Assembly: GCA_964016885.1 (NCBI GenBank)
Contig: OZ024742.1
Coordinates: forward strand, 238,700,001 to 238,764,000
Reading direction: 5' to 3'
Length of the DNA: 64,000 nucleotides
From: Eledone cirrhosa
Taxonomy: Eukaryota
The position numbers and the translations under genes were made by a program. Positions 6,533 through 50,400 of this stretch are shown here, in pieces (the first letter of the stretch is position 1; each line of letters starts with the position of its first letter). The notes below the pieces were generated by a model that was not told the origin of the DNA, made no database searches, and saw nothing but the letters and a program-made list of their open reading frames with translations.

Positions 6533-6929
6533 CTGCAATGAAAAAAACAAACTGCTAACCTTTCATAACCACATACTAAGATGGGCATGGTGAAATACCT
6601 TTTACCTTTTCATTACCATATATCTAAAGTGTGGTTAGAAAAAGCTACCTCACTTACCGCTTTCACAGGCGCCGCTAAATCCCATGGCTGGTTTCTCCTC
6701 CCCCACGTGCGTACAATCCAACTCGTTAACCGGGAGCTGCAAAATTGACATACACCATGTTCCTGATCACCCTAGAGAGAGGCCGACCTGCTTGCCCTTC
6801 CGGTCGAGCACTCCTCAGCTTCCGGCCACCGCACACCACACCATACCCCTCCCCCAAGGATCAATTTCCCCCTTGTCATGCTGCATATGAAAGTCTGCTG
6901 TCCAGGTTGGTGGTTTGCGACTTCTTTGC

Positions 6930-9668
6930 AATCTCCACAGTGTTGGGGGCGGCACTTTGGGTTTCCTCTTCCTCGTAGTCCGTTGACATCCAGAACATGA
7001 CGTGGTACTCCGTCCATGGACACATTGTTCTGGGAATTTACGGCCGTCACCATTCCCCTTCCCCATTGAGATGTGCAACGTGCATCTGGGGTCTTAACCC
7101 AGACTTCTTCGCCCACCTGCACGAATGCATTCTCTCTCCCCACTGGCCATTGTGGTGGCGTGCACGGGTGCCGCCACTCGTATCTGAATACTGCTCTGTG
7201 TGGCACCGATTTCTCAACCTGTCCCATCCGAAGAGACATGTACCAGAACACTGCCTCCATTGGTGAGATGTGGCCCCGCTCCGCCATTGCTTTGATCGTC
7301 CGGTGGTGTCGCTCCACGATTCCATTTCCGCTCGGCCTGTACGCTGCTCTGAAGAAACGGTCCACCTTCCATCCATCGAGCATCTCCCTCAGCGCCTCCA
7401 AGCGGAATGCTGCGCTGTTGTCCATCAGCAGTTCGTCCACAGGGCCTTGCTCCAAGAACACCTCCCTCAACGTTCGCATGATTTCCTCAGCCGTTCCAGT
7501 CTTCATCTCCCTCCATATTGCCATCCGTCCCGGTCCACAGTCGACCATCGAGAGGTACGTTACCTGTCAGTAGTGTGTTACATCCACCGCCAATTGCTTC
7601 CAGTCGCAATCCACCGGGAGGCTTCCCGTTTCGTGCACACCCGGGGTGGGATCAATGGACTGACATCGGACGCAGCCTCTAACCACTCTTTGAACACTGT
7701 GTCTGTTAACATCTGAGTCGATTCTCCTGGCTAGGAACAGAGTCCTATCCACTCCCATGTGGTGCATGTCATACAACCCTTTCAGAACCGACTCGGTCAG
7801 CCGACACACGGCAGCTATCTCCTCTTCTACCTCCTCCGGCGCTTCCATCCAGGCTTTCTTCACCCTGGTTAAAACGCCCGCCCTATTTTTCTCTGAGGGC
7901 ACGAAAACTACGCTCAGCCTCAGGTCGAACTCGGTGGCCAGCTCTCCTAAATTTCCTAGGCGGCGCTTTATCAGCATCTCCGCCGCCCCTCTCGTTTGCA
8001 CTCTCTTCTCACTGGTGAGCACTGATCTCACCTATCCGAGTACAGTAGCCGAGTCGGTGCGTATCTCGATGGTGCGCAGTCCCGACCTCAGGGCGAGGTT
8101 CACCCCTCTCAACACCGCGTCCAGTTCGGTCACATTGATCACATTGATGTGGTTGCAGTCGTCCTTCTTCCTAAGCCAGGCTGCATCCTCGACCTCAACA
8201 CCTCCTATCTCTAACATGACACCCAGCACTATGCTGCTGGCATCGCACCATACGGTCCCGCTCTGCGATTTGGGAACATAACAGTGTCCCCGCACTGGGT
8301 CGTCGGCCTTCACCCTCTCCACGATCTCCTGCATCATGGCCACCGTCCTCTCTCATACTCTGTCACTCCAAGTCACCCCTCCCGCTCATCTCTTGACATA
8401 GCTGCATAGGAGCCACCCAGCAGTCGGGTAGTGACCCACCAACTTTCCACACGGCGAGAAAAGCTCCCAACTACTCATACTTGGGCCCAGTTCTGGAACT
8501 TCATTTCCCCTCTGGAATACTAACACTCCCGTCCTGTCTCGCCGTAGCCTAAGTGCCAGCGCGGCTCCTGCCTCCAACGCTTCTGACGGCTTCGCAGCCA
8601 GTCCATACCCCTGTAAATGGCTCATGACCTCCGCCGCCGACACTACAGACTTGTCCACTAGGATGTCGTCAATGTAGGAATTAGTGGCCCTCTTCATCTT
8701 GTCGGCCTTTCCCAGAATGGTCTTGAGGACCGCCGCCATGATCTTCGGTGTGGAGCTCAGCCCGAATCTGAGCCTGGTCAGACAATATGTCTGGCCCTTA
8801 TACCTGACCAGCTGATACTGCCAGAGCTTCTCATCTATATGCAATATAAAGTATGCCGACTTTAGATCTACGATCGCGGAACCCCCCCCGTCATGTGTTT
8901 CCACTCACGTAGGGTTTCCCCACAGACCTCGCCACCAGTGTGGCATGACAGGTGCTCGTTCAGCTCCTGAAAGTCCAGTACCAGCCTCACCTTGTTCTTC
9001 GTGGGTTGCGCCACCGCCTATAACGACAATACTCCGCACTTCTCCTCTTTCCAGGGAAGCAGTATGCCCTCCTCAATCCATCTCTCTACCTCTCGCTCGA
9101 ACTCGCTCCTGTCTCCCTTCAATGTGTGTTGATAGCAGCCCACTTTGGTCTTCAGTGTTGGTGGTTCTCCCTTCCAGTACCACTCAACAACCCATCGCTG
9201 CCCATCGAACACGGCCTTGAAGTCTTTGTCCTGTACAGTGTAAGTAGAGTATTTCTCCTTGTGGGCCTTCTGGTTCTCCTGTCGCGTACTTACAGCGCAT
9301 ACCGATGCGGCGCCGCCAAATGACACACTGACGTTGTTCACTGTGACGCCTCCTAGATTGCCCATAACCACGCCGATCCCATCCACCACGTTGTCGACTA
9401 CGATGGCAGAAAGCCTTATTTTCCTTCCCCGTACCGCCATCTCCACCTCACTGCGACCTCGGCAATCAATTTTCCTACCGTCGACTGCCTTTACGCTGCT
9501 CTTCCCTCTCCACGTCTGCGCCACCCCCACGGTCACCAGTGTCATCGTACAGCCCGTGTCCATGAGAGTTCGCTGTGGCTTTCCCCTCACGAAGACTTTC
9601 ACCACGGGCAGTGCCTCTACTCGTAAGGGGCAACTACCGGCGCAGTAGTTCCTCTTGGATCGTTTCCC
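6930..9668 (-). pseudogene. G1 pol (protease, RT, RNase H, integrase), disrupted
   Basis: LMDTGC (PR), DLKSAY and YIDD (RT), WCDASS..ELDA..TDS (RH), HHMG..CVRC, DVTH, MDN, VER (IN), spread over several ORFs by stops and frameshifts. 3' boundary approximate. Confidence 0.9.
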
Positions 9669-10354
9669 TGGTTGCAGCTAGTAGTGATGTGGCCTGGTCG
9701 CTTACACCGGCAGCATATTTTTTCCAGCCTTGACTCTCTACAGTCTCTCGCCATGTGCGCACCCTGGCACCTAAAACAGCGACCGCATGCCGTGGTTGCC
9801 TCCCTTTCACCATTTTGCTGCCAGCTGCATTGGGCCTCTGTAATTGCTATCGCCGCGACACTCTTCTTGGCATCTTCTGCTATGATGCGGGCTTGCTCCA
9901 CCAGTGCACGCATCTCCATTTCTTTGTAACCTGGGACTTGCTGCAATTTCACCGCTATGTCGTCTGGAAATCCATTTATGAACGCCAACCGCACCGTGCG
10001 TTTGCATTCCACCTGATATCCAGCCAACATGGCCAATCGCCGTATTTCCGCTGCGAAAATGTCAACGCGTTCACCGTTCCATCTAATTCTTGCCAGCTTA
10101 GCAAAAGCGGCTAACTGTCGCTCCGCGAACGCTTCCATCATGTGCCTCTCAATCTTTTGCGCATCCCTTTGGCTGTGTCCCTCCATCTCTAGGAAGAGTG
10201 CCAACGCGTCCCCCTCGAGGTACAGTGCCATGAGGCCAACCACATCTATCTTCTGTAAGCTTGCGACCAGCCAGACTTTTCGCAGCCAAGCGACAACATC
10301 GCCTTCACCGGTAAATGCCCTAATCGCTTCGCTCATTCGTAGTCTCATCACCAT
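9617..10354 (-). CDS. G1 gag (245 aa) with two CCHC zinc knuckles
   Basis: CFRCQGAHMARDC and CCRCKRPGHITTSC; open frame. Confidence 0.85.
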   Translation of the reverse strand: MVMRLRMSEAIRAFTGEGDVVAWLRKVWLVASLQKIDVVGLMALYLEGDALALFLEMEGHSQRDAQKIERHMMEAFAERQLAAFAKLARIRWNGERVDIFAAEIRRLAMLAGYQVECKRTVRLAFINGFPDDIAVKLQQVPGYKEMEMRALVEQARIIAEDAKKSVAAIAITEAQCSWQQNGEREATTACGRCFRCQGAHMARDCRESRLEKICCRCKRPGHITTSCNQGNDPRGTTAPVVAPYE

Positions 10355-11294
10355 ATCCTAATTTTGTCTTGCGGTAAGTAATAAAAAACAACAGACTCCT
10401 CTCTGTTTTTCCAGTAGCTTTGTTTTCGAGAAAGTTCTTTTTTTTTTTTATCAATCAGATCTCAGTTTCCAGTGCCGAAATAGCTTGTGGTTAGAAAAAG
10501 CTACCTCATTTACCGCTTTCGCAGGCGCCGCTAAATCCCATGGCTGGTTTCTCCTCTCCCATGTGCGTACAATCCAACTCGTTAACCGGGAGCTGCAAAA
10601 CTGACGTCCACCATGTTCTTGATCACCCTAGAGAGAGGCTGACCTGCTGGCCCTTCTGGTCGAGCACCCTTCCGGCCAAGCACCCTTCCGGTCAAGCACT
10701 CTTCCGGTCGAGCACTCCCCATCTTCCGGCCACCGTACACCACACCATATCCACATAAAGGACACTGCCAGTGTGTTTCAAATATTTTTTTAAATAATCA
10801 ATAATTTGGAGGGATTTCATCATATAACTAATTTTCTCATTATTTTTCTGGTGTTTGGAACATAAAGGTTCTGACAGAAAACTAAAATGGAAGGTTTTTA
10901 GATAAATATAAACACTTTAATTCTTTTGTTACTATACTTCTAATGAAATAAACTACCTGTGTATTGAATTAGATTTCTCCATAACTTTTGACTAAATAAA
11001 ATAGTCTGATAATAACAAAGTGTATAAACCTACTGAATGGAATAAGATGGGCATCATAGTCAAAGTTATGGTGAAATTTTCTAATTCATTATAAAGCTAG
11101 TATTTGGAATATAACTTAAAGGTTCTTGCATAAAATTATGATGGAAAGATTTTAGATAAACACTTTAAAATACCCAGTTTTGTATCATAGAAGCTGGGGT
11201 GGTTTCAGGTGATTTGGTATCAAAATAGTTAAATGTTTGATAGAGTAACCAAAAAATCTAATAACATGGTTGACGGTAATTTTCAAAAACTTAC

Positions 11295-28838: not shown

Positions 28839-31800
28839 TGTGGGGCTGCCGCGAGATAGAGGGGGGTGTAGAGCTGCCGTGGGAGGGAGATTGCCGGAAG
28901 TTGGGGGACGCCTGACCGGAAGCAGGAGGACGGGGGCGACTCGAGGGACCAAGCGGTCAACAGTGGCCTCTCGGCCATACGCCCTCGAAGGTGACGGACG
29001 TGCGAAGACAGACGCAAGCGGAAAGTACCCCCATGTGGACCAGAGAGACGCAAGGTAAGTTCGAATGCCTCCGACTACAAGCTATTTAGGCGTTTAATGA
29101 AATTTCCCATCTTTCGGCATTTTTACTCCCGGCACGGCAGCCCTTTAGTTTAGCTTTTTTTCTTTTTTGTTCCCTTTCGTGGGGTATCGTTGTTGGTTTT
29201 TTCCGATCTCGCAGGAGAGATGGCAGAGAAACTAAAATTGAATAGCAAGACTATCAAGGCTTTTAACGGCGAAGATGTTGTGGCCTGGTTGAAAAAGGTT
29301 ACATTGGTCGCCTCGCTGCAAGGCATTGACAACGTTGCTGGTTTGATCGCTCTATATCTCGACGGGGATACCCTAGCACTGTACCTCGAGATGGACGAGA
29401 GCGACCAACTGAATGCGGAGAGGATAGGACAGCGACTTAAGGAAGCGTTCATCGAGGGGCCGTACGCTGCTTTTGCCAAGCTAGACAGAGCGAGATGGCA
29501 GGGAGAGCACGTGGACGTGTTTGCGATAGAGTTACGACGATTGGCTATGTTGGCCGGATTCGCGGTAGAATGCGAATGCGCCGTGCGGCTGGCTTTTATG
29601 AACGGGTTCTCCGACGAAATCTCCGTGAAGCTCCAGCAGCTGCCCGGCAACAGGGAGATGAGCATGAACGAGCTCATCGCACAGGCCCGCGTAATAACAC
29701 AGGACACGAGGTGGAGTGTTGTAGCGCTGGCAGCGACGGAAACCATGGCAGTCGACAGCGACCGACGTATGACGAAAGGAGACCAGCCGCTGTGAATAGT
29801 CGTCCGCGTGCGTTCGGAGGCCGGTGCTTCAGGTGCCAGGGCCCGCACCTGGCAAGGGACTGCAGAGAGCCGAAACCAGCTATAGTCTGCTATCGCTGCA
29901 AGCGACCAGGCCACATCGCAAATAATTGCGACCAGGAGGCGAGTAGAGGCGCCTTTGCAGTTGTTGCCCGCAGTGGAAGCCATCGCGAGCAGTCGTGGAC
30001 ACGGGTTGCACGACAACACTAGTTGCACGACAACACTAGTGACCATGGAGGTGGTAAAAAAGTGGAGCGGGATGAGCAGTATAAGGGCAGTCGACGGCAG
30101 GGAGATTAGATGCAGAGGTACCAGCGAGGTGTCGATGGTGGTACGGGGAAGAAAGATTAGGCTTCGGGCGATCGTGATTGACCAGGTGGTGGACGGAATC
30201 GATGTAGTAATGGGCATGGACATGATTGGCTGCCTTGGAGGTGTTACAGTGACAGAAGTCGGGGTGACGTTTGGTAGCGAGAGGACATCATGTGCTGTGA
30301 GCGTGCTGGGAGAATCCACGAAGAACAGGGCGATCCAAGAAGAAAATACCATACATGACAAGGATTTCAGGGTGGTGTTCGATGGGCAGCGGTGGGTAGT
30401 TGAGTGGTACTGGAAGGGAGAGCCACCAACGCTGAAGAACAGAGTGGGCTGCTATCAACATACCCTGAAAGGAAATGCCAGAAACGAGTTTGAGGGAGAG
30501 GTACAGAGATGGATCGAGGAGGGTATACTGCTTCCTTGGAAGGAGGAGGTGAAGTGTGGAGTGTCGCCGCTGATGGCAGTGGTGCAGCCCACGAAGAACA
30601 AGGTTAGGCCGGTGCTGGACTTTCGTGAGCTGAACGAACACGTGCCATGCCACACAGGCGGTGAGGTCACGGATGTTTGCGGGGAAACTTTGCGAGAGTG
30701 GAGGCGAATGACAGGGGCCTCCACGATTGTCGACTTAAAGTCGGCATATCTGCAGTTACACGTGGATGAGAAGCTGTGGAAATATCAGCTAGTCAGGTAT
30801 AAGGGCCAGACATACTGCCTGACCAGGCTTGGCTTCGGGTTGAACTCTGCGCCAAAAATCATGGCGACGGTCCTCAAGGCCATTCTGTAGAAAGCGGACA
30901 AGGTGAAGAGGGCCACCAACTCCTACATCGACGACATCTTGGTGGACGAGACGGTGGTGTTAGCAGCAGAAGTCTCAGGCCACTTGGGAAGGTACGGACT
31001 GACTGCGAAACCGCCGGAGGCGATGGAAGGAGGAGCCGCGCTAGGACTCAGGTTGCAAAGGGATAAGACGGGCACACGAGTGTTTCGGAGGGGTAACGAA
31101 GTCCCGGAACTGGGCCCCGATATGTGTGGTAAATTGGTGGGCCACTATCCGATCGCAGGGTGACTCCGGACGGCATGCAGCTATGTCAAGAGACGAGCAG
31201 ACGGAGTGAGCTGGGCTGACAGGGTTGGAGAGAAGACAGTGGCCATGATGCAGGAAATCGGGGAGAGGGTAAAGGCGGATGACCCAGTGAAAGGACGCTG
31301 GTACGTCCCCAAATCGGAGAGCGGGACCGTATGGTGTGATGCAAGCAGCATAGCACTAGGGGTCACTCTGGAGATAGGGGGCGTCGAGGTCGAGGACGCA
31401 GCCTGGCTCAGGAAGAAGGAGGACTACATCCACATGAACGTGGCCGAACTGGATGCTGTGCTGAGAGGGGTGAATCTCGCCCTGAGATGAGGGCTGCGCA
31501 CCATAGAAATCCGCACTGACTCGGCCACTGTACTCGGATGCTTACCAGTGAGAGGAGGGTGCGAACGAGAGGGGCAGAAGAAATGTTGATAAAGCACCGC
31601 CTGGGAACTCTGGGAGAGCTAACCACTGAATTTTTTTTGCCCTCGGAGAAGAACAGGGCAGACGTATTAACCAGGGTGAAGAAAGCCTGGCTGGAAACGC
31701 CAGGGGACGCAGAGAAGGGGATAGCGGCAGTGTGTCGGCTCAGTGATTCGGAGTTGAGGGGACTGCACGCCATGCACCACATTGGGGTGGATAGGACCCT

Positions 31801-32838
31801 GTTCCTAGCCAGAAGAATCGACTCTGATGTTAGCAGACAGTGTCCAGAGAGTGGTCGGAGGTTGTGACAGACGCCAGTCTATCGACCCTGCCCCGGGCGT
31901 GCACGAGACAGGAAGCATCCCGGTGGAGCACAACTGGAAGTGATTAGCGGTGGACGTGACACACTACCGACAAGGAACGTATCTTTCCATAGTCGATTGT
32001 GGGCCGGGACGGATGGCGATATGGAGGGAAATGAAGACAGGGACTGTGGAGGAAATCGTGCAGATGCTGAGAGAGATATTCTTGGAGCGGGGCCTTGTGG
32101 ATGAACTGCTGATGGAGAACAGCACGGCGTTTCGCTCGGAGGCGCTGAGGGAAATGCTTGACAAGTGGAAGGTGAACCGCTTCTTCAGAGCGTCATACAG
32201 GCCGAGCGGAAATGGGATCGTGGAAAGACATCATCGTACGATCAAGGCCATGGCGGAAAGGGGGCATATTTTGCTAACGGAGGCAGTGTTCTGGTACAAC
32301 ATGTCTCCGGGGGTGGGACAGACCGAGGAGTCGGTGCCGCACAGGGCAATATACAGATATGAATGGCGACACCCGTGCACGGTACCACAGCAGCCGGTGG
32401 AGAGAGAGAGAGCGCATTCGTACGTTGGGCGAAAAGGTATGGATGAAGCCCCCGAACGCGCGTTGCACATCTCAATGGGGAAAGGGAATGGTAACCGCCA
32501 TAAATTACCAAAACAACGTGTCTATGGACTGTGGACGGAATGCCATGTCACGTCTTGGACGTCCGTAGAGTCGTTGTGGTGACAGACTCCGAGGAAGAGG
32601 GAAAATGAAAGTGCCGCCCCAACAGTGCGGAGATCGCAACGGAGCCTCCGCCAACCTAGGTGGGTGGCGGATTTTGAGATGGAGCAGTGTGATGGGGGGG
32701 GAGTGATCCTTGAGATCAGGGGGTCGTGTGGGGCTGCCGCGAGATAGAGGGGGTGTAGAGCTGTCGTGGGAGGGGGATTGCCGGAAGTTGGGGGACGCCT
32801 GACCGGAAGCAAGAGGACGGGGCGACTCGAGGGACCAA
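28839..32838 (+). mobile_element. Second compact Gypsy (G2), related to G1, decayed, 3' LTR truncated, inserted in an RTE LINE
   Basis: 5' LTR 28839-29079 (TGT...ACA); gag ATG at 29220; PR-RT 29955-30890; YIDD, RH and IN ORFs highly similar to G1; purine tract then 3' LTR 32727-32838, which breaks off. Confidence 0.95.
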
Positions 32839-35800
32839 TTCGTTGTATTCGTTCTGTTCTTGTTTGTTGTATTGTTGACCCATACTAATTTCTTCTCTTA
32901 TTGACTCTTTCTATATTATTCTTAGATTGAATAAAAACCTTTGATTTGGTACAAAATAATACAACAATTTTATTCAATCATGGATCCGAAAATATTCAAG
33001 AAAATTCTTCCGGATGATCCTAATGAATCCGATTATGCCTACTGGAAGAGAATGTTGGCGATCTATTTGGAAAACTTGTCTGTTCCTAACGAAAGTAAGC
33101 TGTCAGTTCTTCTGGTTCTTTGCGGAGCCAATGCTTATACTCTCATTGAAGAAGCAACATCATTCGATGAGGCGTTATCCATTCTTGATAATAAATTTCA
33201 AAAGAAAGGCTCAGCAATAATGACCCGACATAAACTACGCAACCATTGTCAACAAGAAGGGCAATCATTGGAGGCCTACATGACTGAATTAAAAGCCCTC
33301 GCAAAGAAATTCCCCACTAAACCCCTAACAGGGGAACAACATAGACAATTGTTGATTTGTGATGCGTTCGTGTCGGGTGTTTAATCCGCCACCATAAAAC
33401 AACGACTTCTGGAATCACCTGACGAAAATCTAGATAAAATATTCCAAACCGCTCTCACATTAGAACTAGCAATAGAAGACGCACAAAATCTGTCAACAAC
33501 AATATAACCGCCGTCACAACCCGTATTCGCTACTTCTTCATCAAAATGTTTCTGGTGTGGTGGTTCATATCACCAAAAATCAGAGTGCCCTGCAAAAAAT
33601 TCAACTTGCAATTTCTGCCACAAGAAAGGCCACTGGGCAACAGTATGTTTTGTTAAAAATAAGAAGGTACTAAAGAAGATAAAACACGCAGCAGTCTTGA
33701 ATAATAAGGAGGGCCCCGATGAAGCCTATGATGGCAGTAATCTTGCTGCCTGTTATAAACTTGCTTCCGTAAATCATAATACAAACCTTTTAACAATTTA
33801 TGTCAATTCACATAAAACAGAAGGTTTACTTGACACAGGCTCAGACAAGTCTTTCATTGACATGAACCTCTTGTCGAAATGGCAAAGTAAATTCAAGAAA
33901 ACTAAGAATAAGAGTGTAATTTTAGCCGACAACAGTAAACTCATAATACGAAGTACGTTTGAAACAACATTAGAATGGGAGGGCCGAGAATACCACATCG
34001 ATCTAATGGTGGTTGACAAACTCATTGCTCCAGTAGTTATGGGTCTTGATATACTTAAAAGGCAGAAGTCTTTAACAATAAAATATGCGGGGGACATGAG
34101 ACCAGTCACGATATGTATGTCAATGCAAACTCTGAATTGTGAAGAATATGATTTAATGCCTGGTATCGAAACTACAAAACTAAAACCATTATCTATACCT
34201 CCTCGAAAATACAATAAAACCAGCAATTCATTAAAACGGAAATCGACAGAATGCTTAAAGCTGGAATAATTCAACAGAGCAGAAGCCCATGGAGAGCGCA
34301 GTGCTTCGTAATAGATCAAGAAAACAAAAAACGTTTTGTCATAGACTACTCAGGCACTATAAATCGTTACACACCATTAGATTCATACCCTAATGCCATA
34401 ATCGAAGACCTAGTCAACAAAATTTCAAAATACGTATTTCTCGAAAATAGATCTAAAGGCAGATTATCACCAAATACCCATCAAATCTTCCGACTTTAAG
34501 TTAACTGCATTCGAGGCCTGTGGCCGACTATACGGATTTACCCGTCTTCCGTTTGGATGCACAAATGCCGTCCCAATTTTCCAACGAATAATGGACACTT
34601 TCATAGACAATTACAACTTACAAAATACCTACTCATACCTTGACGACATTATTATAATAGGCGGTGGATTGGCAGTATCGGTAGAGGGTCGGATGCCATG
34701 CTTTCCAGCATAGTTACGTCCCTTAACGATCTGAGTTCAAATCCCGCTGAGGTTGACTTTGCCTTTCATCCTTACGGGGTCGATAAAATAAAGTACCAGT
34801 AATGCACTGGGTAATTGCTGGCCTTGTGCCAAAAAGTAGAAACAATTATTATAATTGGCCCTTGCCATTCTGAGTTCAAATCCCGCCGAGGTTAACTTTG
34901 CCTTTCATCCTTACGGGGTCGATAAAATAAAGTACCAGTAATGTACTGGGATAATTGCTGGCCTTGTGCCAAAAGTAGAAACAATTATTATAGGAGAAGA
35001 CACAGTCGAAGAACATAACCATAACCTAAAGCAATTCATGAATGCAGCTAACAATGCAGGTATGCAATTGAATCGAGACAAATGCAGCGTTAATCAAAAT
35101 AGAATACATTTCCTTGGACTTGTCATAGAAAAAAGGTAAATTAAGACCGGACCCTGAAAGGTATAAAGCCCTTATTGACATGCCGTTCCCAAAGACGTTA
35201 AAAGAGTTGAACCGGGTAATCGGTCTTTTTGCATACTATGCTAAATGGATTAAGGGCTCTTCTAACCTCTCAGTCGTTCTTACAAAGGCAAGAAACACCA
35301 TTAATAAACAAGGTCTATCAAACGAAGAAAAATTTACTATTAATAAGATGAAGGAAGAACTCATAAAGGCATCACTGTGTTCACCCGATTTCACTACACC
35401 ATTTATAATCGAAACCGACGCATCAAATAATGCCATTGGCAGAACTCTATCACAAAATGGTCGTCCAATTGCTTTTCTTCGTAGAACACTAAATAAGTCA
35501 GAAAGAGGACATTCCATCATCGAAAACGAAGCTTGCGCAATTATAGAATGTTGTATAAAATAGAGGCATATAATCAGCGCTGTTCCACATTGTAATATAA
35601 TAACAGACCAATGATCGGTTGCATTTGCGTTCAACAAAAAACACACTTCCAAGATTAAAAACGAGAAGGTAGCCCGCTGGCGACTGGAGTTAAGCAATTT
35701 TAACCTTACCTTCTCATATAGACCTGGTTCATTAAACCAAGCCGCAGACGCCCTATCGCGCTGCTGCTCTACTAAGACGGAACACGAATTATACAATATT

Positions 35801-37097
35801 CACTGACGTCTATGTCATCCGGGGGTCACCAGACTTCTATATTATTGTAAATCAATGAACTTGGCATATTCTATTAATGAAATAAGAGAAGTTATCGCCA
35901 ATTGCAAAATATGCCGTGAATGTAAACCACAATTCTATAAACCACCCAAAGGAAGATTAATACATGCCACAAGACCCTGGGAAAGACTATCAATGGACTT
36001 TGTGGGTCCCATGGCTATCTCAAACGGTTTTCGATTTATATTAACTATAGTTGACGAGTACTCACATTTTCCATTCGCCATTCCCTGTAAAGAGATAACA
36101 ACCGACGTAGTAATTAAACATCTATTGGAGATATTCTCTATATTTGGAAAACCCAGTTCGATTCATACAGATAGGGGACGTCAATTTGAATCACAAAAAC
36201 TCAAAGATTTCTTATGGAGTAATAACATTATAAAAAGCCACACCACGCCATATCGACCCCAAGCCAACGGCCAATGCGAAAGAGTTAACGGCACAATATG
36301 CAAAGCGATAAGTCTGGCATTGAAGACAAATAATCTCAATAAAAATGGAGTAACATGATTCTAATCGCTCTGTCGTCTATCCGAGGATTGCTTTGCACTG
36401 CTACAAACGCCACGCCACATGAAAGAGTATTTTCATTCACCAGATCAACAAAGAACGGCACAGAAATACCAGAGTTGCTAAATAAACCGGGAACAACCGT
36501 GCTACATCGACGTCACATAAGGAATAAAGGTGATGATCTCACGGAAAACGTTCAACTCATCAAGACGATCTCACCCCACTTTGCCAAGGTACAATTTAAT
36601 AATGGAAGAATAGACACAGTCTCAACTACACACCTCGCACCAGCAGCATCACCACAAAACAATGGAAATTCAACAACATCGGAGTGTCAGAATAACAACT
36701 CCCCAAAAGGCGCCAATTTAACTCAACCAACAGTAATATCTACACCTGTGGCAGTTGGGAACGAAAGTATGACATCTACCGTCGATGACAATCCTACAGA
36801 GAGTGCGGAATTTAACGACGATGAATCTTCTGACACATTCTTAACCTCGAATAACACACCCCAACAACAAAGAACATGCCGAGGACGTGCTAGAGGGAAA
36901 GAATGTGATGATATGATTTGTTTTATAGCATCACTTTCTTCTCTTTGATTTGATTCCTTTTTATTCTTATTCGTTGTATTCGTTCCGTTCTTGTTTGTCG
37001 TATTGTTGACCCATACTAATTTTTTCTCTTATTGACTCTTTCTATATTATTCTTAGATTGAATAAAAACCTTTGATTTTGTACAAAATAATACAACA
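32838..37097 (+). mobile_element. AT-rich Gypsy LTR retrotransposon (G3), decayed, 5' LTR truncated
   Basis: 5' LTR remnant 32838-32966; 3' LTR 36904-37097 (TG...CA) after PPT AGAGGGAAAGAA; gag from 32980 with CCHC motifs ~33547-33650; LLDTGS protease; YLDD RT; ETDAS RNase H; IN (SMDFVGP, TDRG, CER). Confidence 0.95.
34657..34992 (+). mobile_element. Two tandem tRNA-derived SINE copies (second 5'-truncated) inserted in G3 RT
   Basis: A-box-like TGGCAGTATCGG, B-box GAGTTCAAATCC, core gcctttcatccttacggggtcgataaa...agtaccag; ATTATTATA at 34648, 34845 and 34984; excision restores YLDDIIIGEDTVEEH. Confidence 0.9.
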
Positions 37098-47075: not shown

Positions 47076-48659
47076 CCACTAAATAACTTCCTCTAAAGAG
47101 TCAAGCTGTACTCGGGTGAGGGACGCGGCACCGGTTCAGTTATCAATAAAACGTCTGTATAGCTCGGGAGTGGGGCTAGTGTATTGGGAAAAGATTTGGG
47201 CCTCAACATAGCCGATGAATAAATTGGCCATCTCTGTCGTCCGTTGGTACATCTCACAAGAGAAAGAGAAACAATTGAGGACGAGAATCAGCCGGCCAGG
47301 CGAATAAGGATGGAGATGGAAGGTTAAGGCGAAGGTCAAGGGAATGCTGGAGAGCTGTGTGGGATGGCAGGATGGTTACAAGGGGTTAAAAAATGGAGTC
47401 CAAGAAAGCAGAAACTAATTCTGTTGGACAATTGCACGCGGAGACGATGGGGTGTCCGATTTATGGATTTTGGGGAGGAAGTATATGGTGGAAATACGTG
47501 GTGTGTGGACGATAATGTTGGTTGCTGTGGCGGGTAGGAGTGTGGAGGTGATAAGTTCGCGTAAAGTGAAGGAAACTGATAGAGGAGTGGGGTTAGAAGA
47601 CAGGAGGCGGTATAAGAGGAGGGTTGTGGAGGTGCCGTAACGCCTTCGTTTTGTAGCGGTTGGCGCGTCATATGATCACAGCACCCCCTTTGGCGATGTC
47701 ATCATGCTGTCGGAGGGAGAGAGGTCGGCGATATCTACCCGAGAGATGTTTCTCCGTTGAAAGCGTTTCCGAAAGTCGAACCGATTCATTTCTCGATGGA
47801 AGGCGTCATCAAACGTGTCTAAGGCACTGAATTGTCTGGAGGACGGCGTCCAGTGCGATGGTCGTCCACCCAGCTCATCAAGGAGGCTAGAATTGTTCAG
47901 AGCCGGAGCGATATCATAAAAATGAGCTTGCAATTTTTTCCGACGCTTCTACGTTCAACATCGGAGTGGGTCAGAAATTCATCGCCGGAAGATGTGAGGG
48001 GCATGAAGCGCAGACCTCTACTGAGGAGTGATCGCTCAGATCCGGAGAGGGGAAGGTCGGGGGTAGAGTGACAAGTTGTGGGTTCGGTGGAGTGGAGTTT
48101 GGATCAGAAGGGTTGGATAGGGAGTTAGTAGAAGGAAGAGGGTATACTGCGGGTGCGAGTGAGGGCTAAGAAATAGGAGTGGAAAGGTGGGAAGGTGAAT
48201 GTTGGTGAGGTGCGTGTGAGTGTACTGGTGGGGTGGGATGAAAGAGAGAATTAAGCTTGCGAAGTTTGGTGAAGGTGAAGAAGTCGAAGAGTAGGTAGTT
48301 GAGGTGTAGGATGAAGAGAATTATTGAATGTGAGAGGAAAGGGCGACAGGTAGAACATAGGAGAAAGGTTTGGGGGAGGTCGCAGTTGATGGTGCAAATC
48401 TAGGACATGGTGAAACGTAGGGTGGCTTGCATAAGAAGGCAGGATGGTCTGTAGAGGATGGGCTAAATGGAGGAGAAGGAGTAGGTTGTGGGGTGGAAAT
48501 GGAGGCGAAAACTCTGCGGGATGAGATGTAGACAACTGCTGAGGTGATATGGCTGGTGTATTGGGCTTTTGCGATGACGAGGTATGACAGGCGGAGAGCA
48601 GGTTGGCAACAGAAATTATTATTTTGAGTGGAGGTGACGGAGGAAAAATGTTTGGTTAG

Positions 48660-50400
48660 GCATGTCGTGTTCATTCTCGGAAGCACTTGCTACCAGTACG
48701 TCGTTAATATACGCGTATACGAAGGGTAGATCGCGTAACACGGTGTCAATAAACCGCTGAAAAGTTTGTGCAGCGTTGCGCAGACCGAACGGCATTCGCA
48801 GGAATTCGAATAAACCGAACGGTGTTGTGAATGCGGTCTTCGGAATGTCTGCAGGCTCCATAGGTATCTGGTTATATGCACGCACCAAATCTACCTTGGA
48901 AAAGATACGTGCGCCTTGCAGAGAGGCAGAAAAATCGTGCAGGTGAGGTACAGGGTAATTATCGGACACTGTAGAATTGTTAAGTGCACGATAATCCCCA
49001 CATGGTCGCCAATCATTCTCGGTTTTATTTGGAACAAGGTGTAGGGGTGCAGACCAGTTGCTGGAGGAAGGGCGAATGATTCCGAGGTCTAGCATGTGTT
49101 GGAACTCCTGCTTGGCGATTCTCAATCGGTCTGGAGGCAGTCTCCTTGGTCGGGCAGCTGTGGGTGGTCCCTTTGTCTCGATGTGGTGCGTGACACTATG
49201 CTTAATAGGACCATCCTTAAATACCGGGCGAGTGATGTCTGGGTATTTCTGGAGAATGCCGTTGTACCGCGAAGGCTCTGACTGGCAAATTACAGGGCTC
49301 ACTGTGGATTGCGTGGTAAATATACCTCTCACAGTGAGGTTTGTGGTGGTGTCAATTAGCCTCCGGTTCTTCATGTCCACCAGAAGGTTGAAGTGGTGGA
49401 GAAAATCGGCTCCTAGGATCGGGGTCGGCAGGTCTGCCACGACGAACACCCATTGAAAACGCCGCCTCAGGCCTAAATTGAGGGTCAGAGACTTCTCCCC
49501 GAAAGTCGGAATTGACGATTGGTTCACTGCCTGCAGAAAGGACATGGTTGGGTGTCTTTTGCCCGAGATTAGTGAAACCGGAATAACACTAACCTGGGCT
49601 CCTGTATCCACGAGGTAACGGATGCCTGTCGCCTGGTCGTTAATAAAAAATAAACGACTTTTCTTTTCAGTACCAGGGGTGAACGTCGTCGCCAGGCCCT
49701 GGGTGGCATTCCGGAAAGAGCACGGGGCTTTGCACTTAGATGCCTGTGCGCCGAAATTTGTGTGATACCAGCAGAGGTTGCCAGGCACACGATTTTGACT
49801 GGGACTACTGGATCTTCGACTGTGAAAAGGCCTGGATCGACTGTTGCTGCGTCACCGGTGTGTTTGAAAGGTCAAGTTCTCTACTTGATTCGAGAGGGCT
49901 TTAATTTGACCAGCCCGCTCTCTGATCATAGCCCGCAGCTCTGAAATCTCGGCCTCTGTCGTTTGTGACATGTCCATGTTGATATTTTCTTAGGTGCTGT
50001 CTGGTTGCGCGTTCGACTCACGTTCGGGTCACCAATTGTAGCGACGTGGTTAGTCCGTCTAGTCACTACTTCTGATCAGATCTGAAGGTAGTCCTTAAAA
50101 GGACTGTTGTCGCATATAGCCCTTAAAAGAACTGTTGAGGATGGACAGACGAAAGCACAAGTTGAAAGGACGAAGCAAGGCGAGATGTAAATTCGATCAG
50201 CTATTTATTTTCACATGAAGCGACGATACGAGGTACAAGGCGTGTGTGAGTGACAAAGCGTGGCAGAGGCGAGGAACAACGATGCGCTAGCTGACTCTGC
50301 CAAAAGTCGACTGCTGAAGTGTTTGGAACCACTCTATTTATACAGAAACAATCGTTTGATGTTTAGCCGATGTGTAGGCGTTTATTCTGGTAGGTTTTAA
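48660..50400 (-). mobile_element. CsRn1-clade Gypsy fragment (LTR, PBS, deleted gag, PR, partial RT)
   Basis: CWYH...C..PC (CHCC gag motif), [29 protein letters not shown]; PBS TGGTGACCCGAACGTGA at ~50018-50034; inner LTR edge at 50037, outer edge uncertain. Confidence 0.9.

Follow-up and report, generated by a model that had tools for sequence, protein, structure and literature searches.

LTR elements of the window

The window, the whole stretch of 64,000 nucleotides of Eledone cirrhosa DNA that was analysed, carries a 4.1-kb LTR element on the minus strand (G1, 6630-10755) and a second, broken element on the plus strand (G2). Their features are as follows.

6625..6629 and 10756-10760, no strand: 5-bp target-site duplication of G1, two copies
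6630..6848, minus strand: G1 3′ LTR; what comes after it is the target duplication, not the 12-mer described below
6846..6855, minus strand: G1 polypurine tract (approximate; the start of the 3′ LTR is eroded)
6985..9677, minus strand: G1 pol with protease (PR), reverse transcriptase (RT), probable thumb (DUF7047), RNase H (RH) and integrase (IN), interrupted by stops and frameshifts
9617..10354, minus strand: G1 gag with CCHC knuckles
10474..10485, minus strand: putative G1 primer-binding site (PBS), exact complement of tRNA-Phe(GAA) nt 1-12, with zero spacer to the LTR
10486..10755, minus strand: G1 5′ LTR (TG...CA); the LTR pair is 94% identical over 182 nt and 92% over 52 nt
10498..10508, minus strand: U5 arm able to pair with the 5′ part of the site, in G1-like LTRs only (fold -14.4 kcal/mol)
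28839..29079, plus strand: G2 5′ LTR, not alignable to the G1 LTR
29080..29091, plus strand: putative G2 primer-binding site (11/12; 12/12 in many family members)
29220..32582, plus strand: G2 gag and pol, broken
32727..32838, plus strand: G2 3′ LTR, split by a nested element, G3

The alignment of the two G1 LTRs runs to exactly 10486/6630, and the 5′ LTR ends in ...ACCACA, which is followed without spacer by AGCTATTTCGGC (element strand, 10485 to 10474; GCCGAAATAGCT on the plus strand). A primer pairing with this site would read 5′-GCCGAAAUAGCU-3′, with its 3′ end towards the LTR. In G2 the corresponding site, preceded by ...ACTACA, is AGCTATTTAGGC at 29080-29091. A preliminary description of this DNA had reported that a 12-mer in place of a TGG PBS lies directly inside the G1 5′ LTR, and that G2, with an LTR that does not align to that of G1, keeps 11 of the 12 letters at the same position; both observations are confirmed here, the G1 site adjoining the terminal CA of the LTR. 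TGG is absent from the start of the site in G1 and G2, as it is in the genome copies and metagenome relatives examined.

Further features of the window are a protease-RT frame on the minus strand (48619-49851) and two sets of direct repeats (44145-44517/45937-46306 and 51601-52114/52861-53353). The nested element G3 (32838-37097) is an ordinary Ty3-type element without a TGG site; the bases behind its LTR (32967-32978) are perfectly complementary to LTR bases 32925-32936, which span an AATAAA signal, making G3 a candidate self-priming element by its sequence.

The site is complementary to the 5′ end of host tRNA-Phe

The 12-mer complements nt 1-12 of the host tRNA-Phe(GAA) genes without a mismatch, so that the resemblance to the tRNA-Phe 5′ end noted in the preliminary description holds for the genes of the host itself. 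A search for the tRNA-Phe start gave 247 matches in the 3.0-Gb genome, vs 0 for the control, and ARAGORN called tRNA-Phe(GAA) in seven of the eight loci submitted, from 12 fetched. By a rough estimate, a 12-mer would equal the start of one of ∼50 tRNAs by chance in 3 cases in a million. The duplex between site and tRNA is predicted at -20.7 kcal/mol, with no pairs contributed by tRNA nt 13-18. At the other end, the site is followed by A or G in 30/30 copies. The T needed to continue the duplex into the pre-tRNA leader never occurs there, A being the base just before the tRNA-Phe gene in all six genes listed; pairing therefore ends at the mature tRNA 5′ end. A palindromic site was considered and rejected, as self-complementarity is limited to the first four bases.

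Some of the tRNA-Phe genes lie in a tandem array (G000:C4 from 117.36 Mb, L005-L012) of ∼1.26-kb units, each with a tRNA-Phe and a tRNA-Asn, and some Phe copies of this array vary at nt 4. The G2-type variant of the 12-mer occurs in three among the first 100 of the 251 host tRNA-Phe genes listed. The single mismatch of G2 is private, in that G2 alone has the change among the G2-like copies listed, and a pattern search of the genome, with a pattern lacking the G1-type LTR ends, returned the G2-type variant in 2 of 31 matches. Because the variant is nearly unique among sites, the idea that it was copied from a rare host variant gene was not adopted, point mutation being as likely a source. A C-to-T variant of the site matches other rare tRNA-Phe genes, yet equals plain CpG decay.

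The paired 5′ strand of tRNA-Phe might serve as an anchor (for packaging, dimer formation or positioning), with priming left to the displaced CCA end, a protein or a DNA end. Established tRNA structure lends this some sense, in that pairing of nt 1-7 releases the 3′ acceptor strand. In G1, G2 and 30 leader regions, however, no 9-nt stretch complementary to tRNA nt 13-73 is conserved (three scattered matches) and no TGG stands at the LTR edge, whereas the geometry places nt 12 exactly at the required start of minus-strand synthesis. We regard the anchor as unlikely and favour nt 1-12 themselves as the primer.

The 12-mer is retained across copies with unalignable LTRs

Extended by the LTR-terminal CA, the 12-mer has 527 matches in the genome vs 1 for the backwards control. 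The first 30 of these 527 matches, on which the LTR grouping is based, fall into six LTR groups; at least four mutually unalignable groups with pol have the 12-mer, which is thus kept across elements whose LTRs are not conserved. The LTR repeat runs up to the base immediately before the site in 12 of the 18 copies fetched and 3 nt short in one, the other five having no second LTR in range; the edge accordingly coincides in 12 of 13 two-LTR copies. Searching from Gag, we found a site within 2 mismatches in 25 of the best 30 loci (exact in 13), most changes being CpG decay. No pol lies behind the site in three fetched copies, including two singletons (L033 and L040; L181, L185) in which the exact site follows an LTR-like end with no pol within 5.5 kb; such pol-less copies may be non-autonomous partners or chance matches.

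Another conserved host RNA that ends in, or contains, the same 12 bases would offer a primer for which no cut inside a tRNA is needed, and the contexts of the 12-mer were searched in part. Once tRNA-Phe genes and LTR edges are set aside, 44 scattered matches to the 12-mer are left, some of them at decayed LTR edges, vs 14 for controls, and no third multicopy family appeared among the next-base contexts searched. The match also starts exactly at the mature tRNA 5′ end, which argues for tRNA-Phe, and a different host RNA seems to us improbable.

Distant relatives carry the site, which may vary with the tRNA-Phe of the host

At the protein level, Pol has relatives in Argonauta, Aplysia, Oratosquilla, Petrolisthes, Palaemon, Hydra and Macrosteles, as well as on many unnamed contigs, the Argonauta protein being the nearest named Pol on the tree. 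A metagenome scan gave 71 loci with relatives at about 50-70% amino-acid identity. No relatives were found on viral contigs, and a protein atlas returned hypothetical clusters only, some euglenozoan on three members, which we take as a lead only.

The pattern CA-AGCTAT-NNN-G[G/T]C is present near the gag start in 38 of 43 gag-anchored metagenome loci; of the five without the exact pattern, two are truncated, two degenerate and one is changed opposite tRNA nt 7. In four further loci the site is present without a gag match. As individual cases, L093 shows one change opposite nt 7, and L108/L110 show three changes, which reflect either decay or another tRNA. Conservation across the family, which the preliminary description had put forward as a check on its reading, is thus found in the genome at large, in the Gag-anchored loci and in the metagenome relatives.

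The three variable bases of the site face nt 4-6 of the tRNA, in the acceptor stem, and are distributed as CTA (14), TTC (13), CGC (9), CCC (4) and CAC (2). A natural tRNA-Phe(GAA) gene that begins with the complement of the CTA variant was met at L169, one of seven matches; matched tRNA-Phe genes are thus this genome's and L169 (CTA), with the CGC, CCC and CAC variants standing without one. One CTA-variant element was located in annelid metagenome runs. On a quick tree with a weak backbone, from which 4 loci with short RT matches were left out, the triplet changes at least nine times among 40 rows, and CTA-variant elements also form one clade. Families of the same assembly, at 48-64% identity, share the triplet in 8 of 10 pairs vs 2.7 expected (p=0.002), although the metagenome assemblies are mixed, the pairs lack independence and 2/10 disagree. 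Conversely, sister elements of different assemblies carry different variants (L073/L054, L058/L063). These patterns suggest that the site follows the tRNA-Phe of its host, a covariation that is indirect in that this genome's is the only host tRNA-Phe that was read.

Two further traits lie elsewhere in the elements. A hairpin of 5-6 bp stands directly before the polypurine tract (window 32704-32717, L050, L054, L060, L063, L070, L072 and L096) and, as judged by eye, its pairing is kept while its letters change in many clade members. A splice-donor-like GGTAAGT lies ∼26 nt before the LTR end in the window (29054-29060), in G1-like LTRs and in several LTR groups of this genome, and is rare among the metagenome relatives.

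The elements contain no consistent complement of the site

A site that adjoins the LTR without TGG is also the mark of self-primed elements in the text available of PMC4600332, and the G1-like LTRs can form a U5 hairpin with the site. Priming of the Tf1 type, in which the site is bound by the element's own transcript start or by an LTR splice joint and its match to the tRNA is a coincidence, would account for both. Likewise, Tf1, Tj1 and sushi share with the present elements, as read here, a short primer taken from the very 5′ terminus of an RNA, together with a site beside the LTR and the lack of TGG; they differ in that the complement is found here in a host tRNA rather than in the element's own transcript, and in their chromodomain.

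We therefore looked at the complementarity within the elements. In 46 of 47 elements, no more than 9 of 12 complementary bases occur within 400 nt upstream of the site, which is the level of shuffled sequence; the exception is L089, with an 11/12 complement 327 nt upstream. Spliced self-primers reach 10/12 in 4 of 50 elements and never more, again at shuffle level, whereas the same look at the neighbour G3 gives a perfect 12-nt LTR complement. The G1 fold across the U5 edge, raised in the preliminary description as a possible alternative, is real but confined to G1-like LTRs, being absent from G2 and from the metagenome relatives, and its arm, at 23 nt from the LTR end, is too near that end for a transcript start. 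Moreover, the site is conserved whereas the LTRs are not. The better complement that the preliminary description had allowed for was thus found neither within the LTR of the element, be it contiguous or across a splice joint, nor as a third multicopy family in the contexts searched. Self-priming is largely refuted and, in our estimate, very improbable, leaving tRNA-Phe as the favoured source of the primer.

The elements are gypsy-like in layout

The TG...CA LTRs, the 5-bp target duplication, the polypurine tract and the order PR-RT-RH-IN behind a CCHC Gag are shared with Ty3/gypsy elements (Metaviridae), including the mollusc MolGy clades. In contrast to these, the clade has DUF7047, in all 47 aligned Pol proteins, and its RNase H matches the RVT_3/RNase_H profiles, whereas the Ty3-type profiles (Pfam RT_RNaseH, RT_RNaseH_2) match 0 of the 47 Pol proteins at E≤0.01 and match G3 at 4e-17. 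DUF7047 coincides with a helical stretch immediately before RNase H in a structural model (pLDDT 78) and is probably the thumb. No chromodomain is found among the Pfam matches of the 47 Pol proteins. Sequence and fold searches returned only distant retroviral and pararetroviral proteins, the best structural matches being 11-18% identical. The ‘Gypsy’ label of the preliminary description thus stands on domain order and is provisional, because the Ty3-type RNase H signature is missing. Saci2/lennie was considered as a name for the clade and tentatively set aside on comparison by description, since 4-bp duplications and Leu, Gly or Lys primers are reported there (PMC12471100, in the text available). 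The portions available of the MolGy paper (PMC6238403) hold no mention of a PBS or a tRNA.

A probable 12-nt tRNA-Phe primer

The position of the site, its exact length, its match to host genes and its conservation throughout a deep clade are established. On these sequence grounds we consider it likely that nt 1-12 of tRNA-Phe are the minus-strand primer of this clade. In the proposed mechanism, packaging would bring in mature tRNA-Phe, of which the 5′ acceptor strand, nt 8-9 and three bases of the D-stem would anneal to the site. The tRNA would then be cut after U12, at the edge of the duplex, most likely by the element's own RNase H, and RT would extend from U12 directly into the CA of the LTR. 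Finally, synthesis of the plus strand would continue to the last base of its template, the 5′ end of the 12-nt primer, and so keep rewriting the site to the tRNA-Phe of the current host. Copying of the entire 12-nt primer into the plus strand would explain both the sharp edge of the site opposite the first tRNA base, G1, and the host tracking. A primer of 11 nt with a 1-nt spacer is conceivable. The preliminary description, which had a 12-nt 5′ tRNA-Phe fragment as the primer, is thus supported as to match and conservation, while priming and the cut at U12 are our inference.

The same primer could be host-made, a 5′ tRNA-Phe fragment cut in the D-loop and trimmed to U12, which differs in the cutter only. 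On either route, a point against the proposal is that the usual 5′ tRNA fragments measure 14-16 nt, more than a 12-nt piece with its end inside the D-stem. Against a host-made fragment, the site never pairs with tRNA nt 13-16, a pairing that an end in the D-loop would favour, and the end of the match meets the LTR edge in the two-LTR copies, with the one exception given above. For a host-made fragment speak the priming of copia with a 5′ half of tRNAi-Met (PMC10275265) and the existence of 5′ tRNA fragments as a general class (PMC7472051), both as given in the portions available of these papers, together with the fact that no conserved cleavage structure was found on the element side. Specifically, no clade-wide extra pairing that would mark such a structure was found; an extended duplex between U5 and tRNA nt 13-30, for which G1 had given a hint, was tried and discarded as not clade-wide (mean z -0.11, 4 of 35 at p≤0.05). 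We assign the host-made fragment a sizeable minority of the total probability. As to the cutter, the element RNase H is slightly preferred over host trimming because the primer end equals the duplex edge, because the site never reaches nt 13-16 and because Tf1 offers a precedent.

Relation to known priming systems

The Tf1 primer is 11 nt long, and work by Levin in 1996 is said to have found that cleavage of its RNA duplex requires RNase H. In the corresponding search for a Tf1/sushi-type LTR complement here, 1 of 47 elements reaches 11/12, the others at most 9, and spliced complements at most 10/12 in 50. Canonical priming from the 3′ CCA end, as in retroviruses and most Ty3/gypsy elements, likewise uses a host tRNA and a site just inside the 5′ LTR, but here the opposite end of the tRNA is used, TGG is lacking and a cut is needed. 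That tRNA-Phe as such serves retroelements is known from IAP (PMC7472051, as far as its available text goes).

Also among the closest known systems is half-tRNA priming in Ty1/copia, described for Drosophila copia, yeast Ty5, the plant elements Osser, Bryco, Gymco-II and Bianca, and fungal Copia and Helenus (PMC6317226, PMC10886601, PMC10275265, each by its available text). In both cases, the present one as proposed, a host tRNA supplies the primer from its 5′ portion, and cleavage is needed to create the 3′ OH. According to the same portions, however, the Copia systems involve a cut in the anticodon arm, internal pairing and tRNAs iMet, Ile, Tyr or Asp/Asn, and the reports concern Copia only, whereas pairing here is with nt 1-12, from the very first base of tRNA-Phe. 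The elements lack the Copia-type IN upstream of RT, their order being PR-RT-RH-IN, and contain no complement to the anticodon arm, nt 1-12 of tRNA-Phe alone being matched.

A plant-wide survey distinguishes, in the sections available, three primer types, namely an intact tRNA, half of a tRNA cleaved in the anticodon stem, and a self-primer (PMC6317226); by sequence, the present site probably represents a further type. No earlier description of it was found in the literature searched, motif letters included, with Repbase reports, subscription journals and figure-only supplements outside the scope of the search; the available text of PMC5006619, PMC3587641, PMC3286476 and PMC8220671 does not describe it either. 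The remark in the preliminary description that this mode of priming was new to its author is borne out to that extent.

As a whole, the picture of a deep lineage of compact LTR retrotransposons in cnidarians, molluscs, annelids, crustaceans and insects with a fourth mode of priming, whose RNase H clips mature tRNA-Phe after U12, giving a 12-nt primer by Tf1 chemistry in trans, and whose every replication rewrites the site to the host, is offered tentatively, as something rather less than probable. A primer consisting of nt 1-12 of a tRNA would be the first truncated-tRNA primer outside Copia, as far as our literature search shows; it would bridge the copia and Tf1 mechanisms, give a role to a very short 5′ piece of tRNA and predict host control via 5′ rather than 3′ tRNA fragments. 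Searches for a PBS may use tRNA 3′ ends only (PMC13524379, in the text available) and are blind to such sites; therefore the whole lineage may be filed under ‘no PBS’. If the site does follow the host tRNA, it would also serve as a record of host switches.
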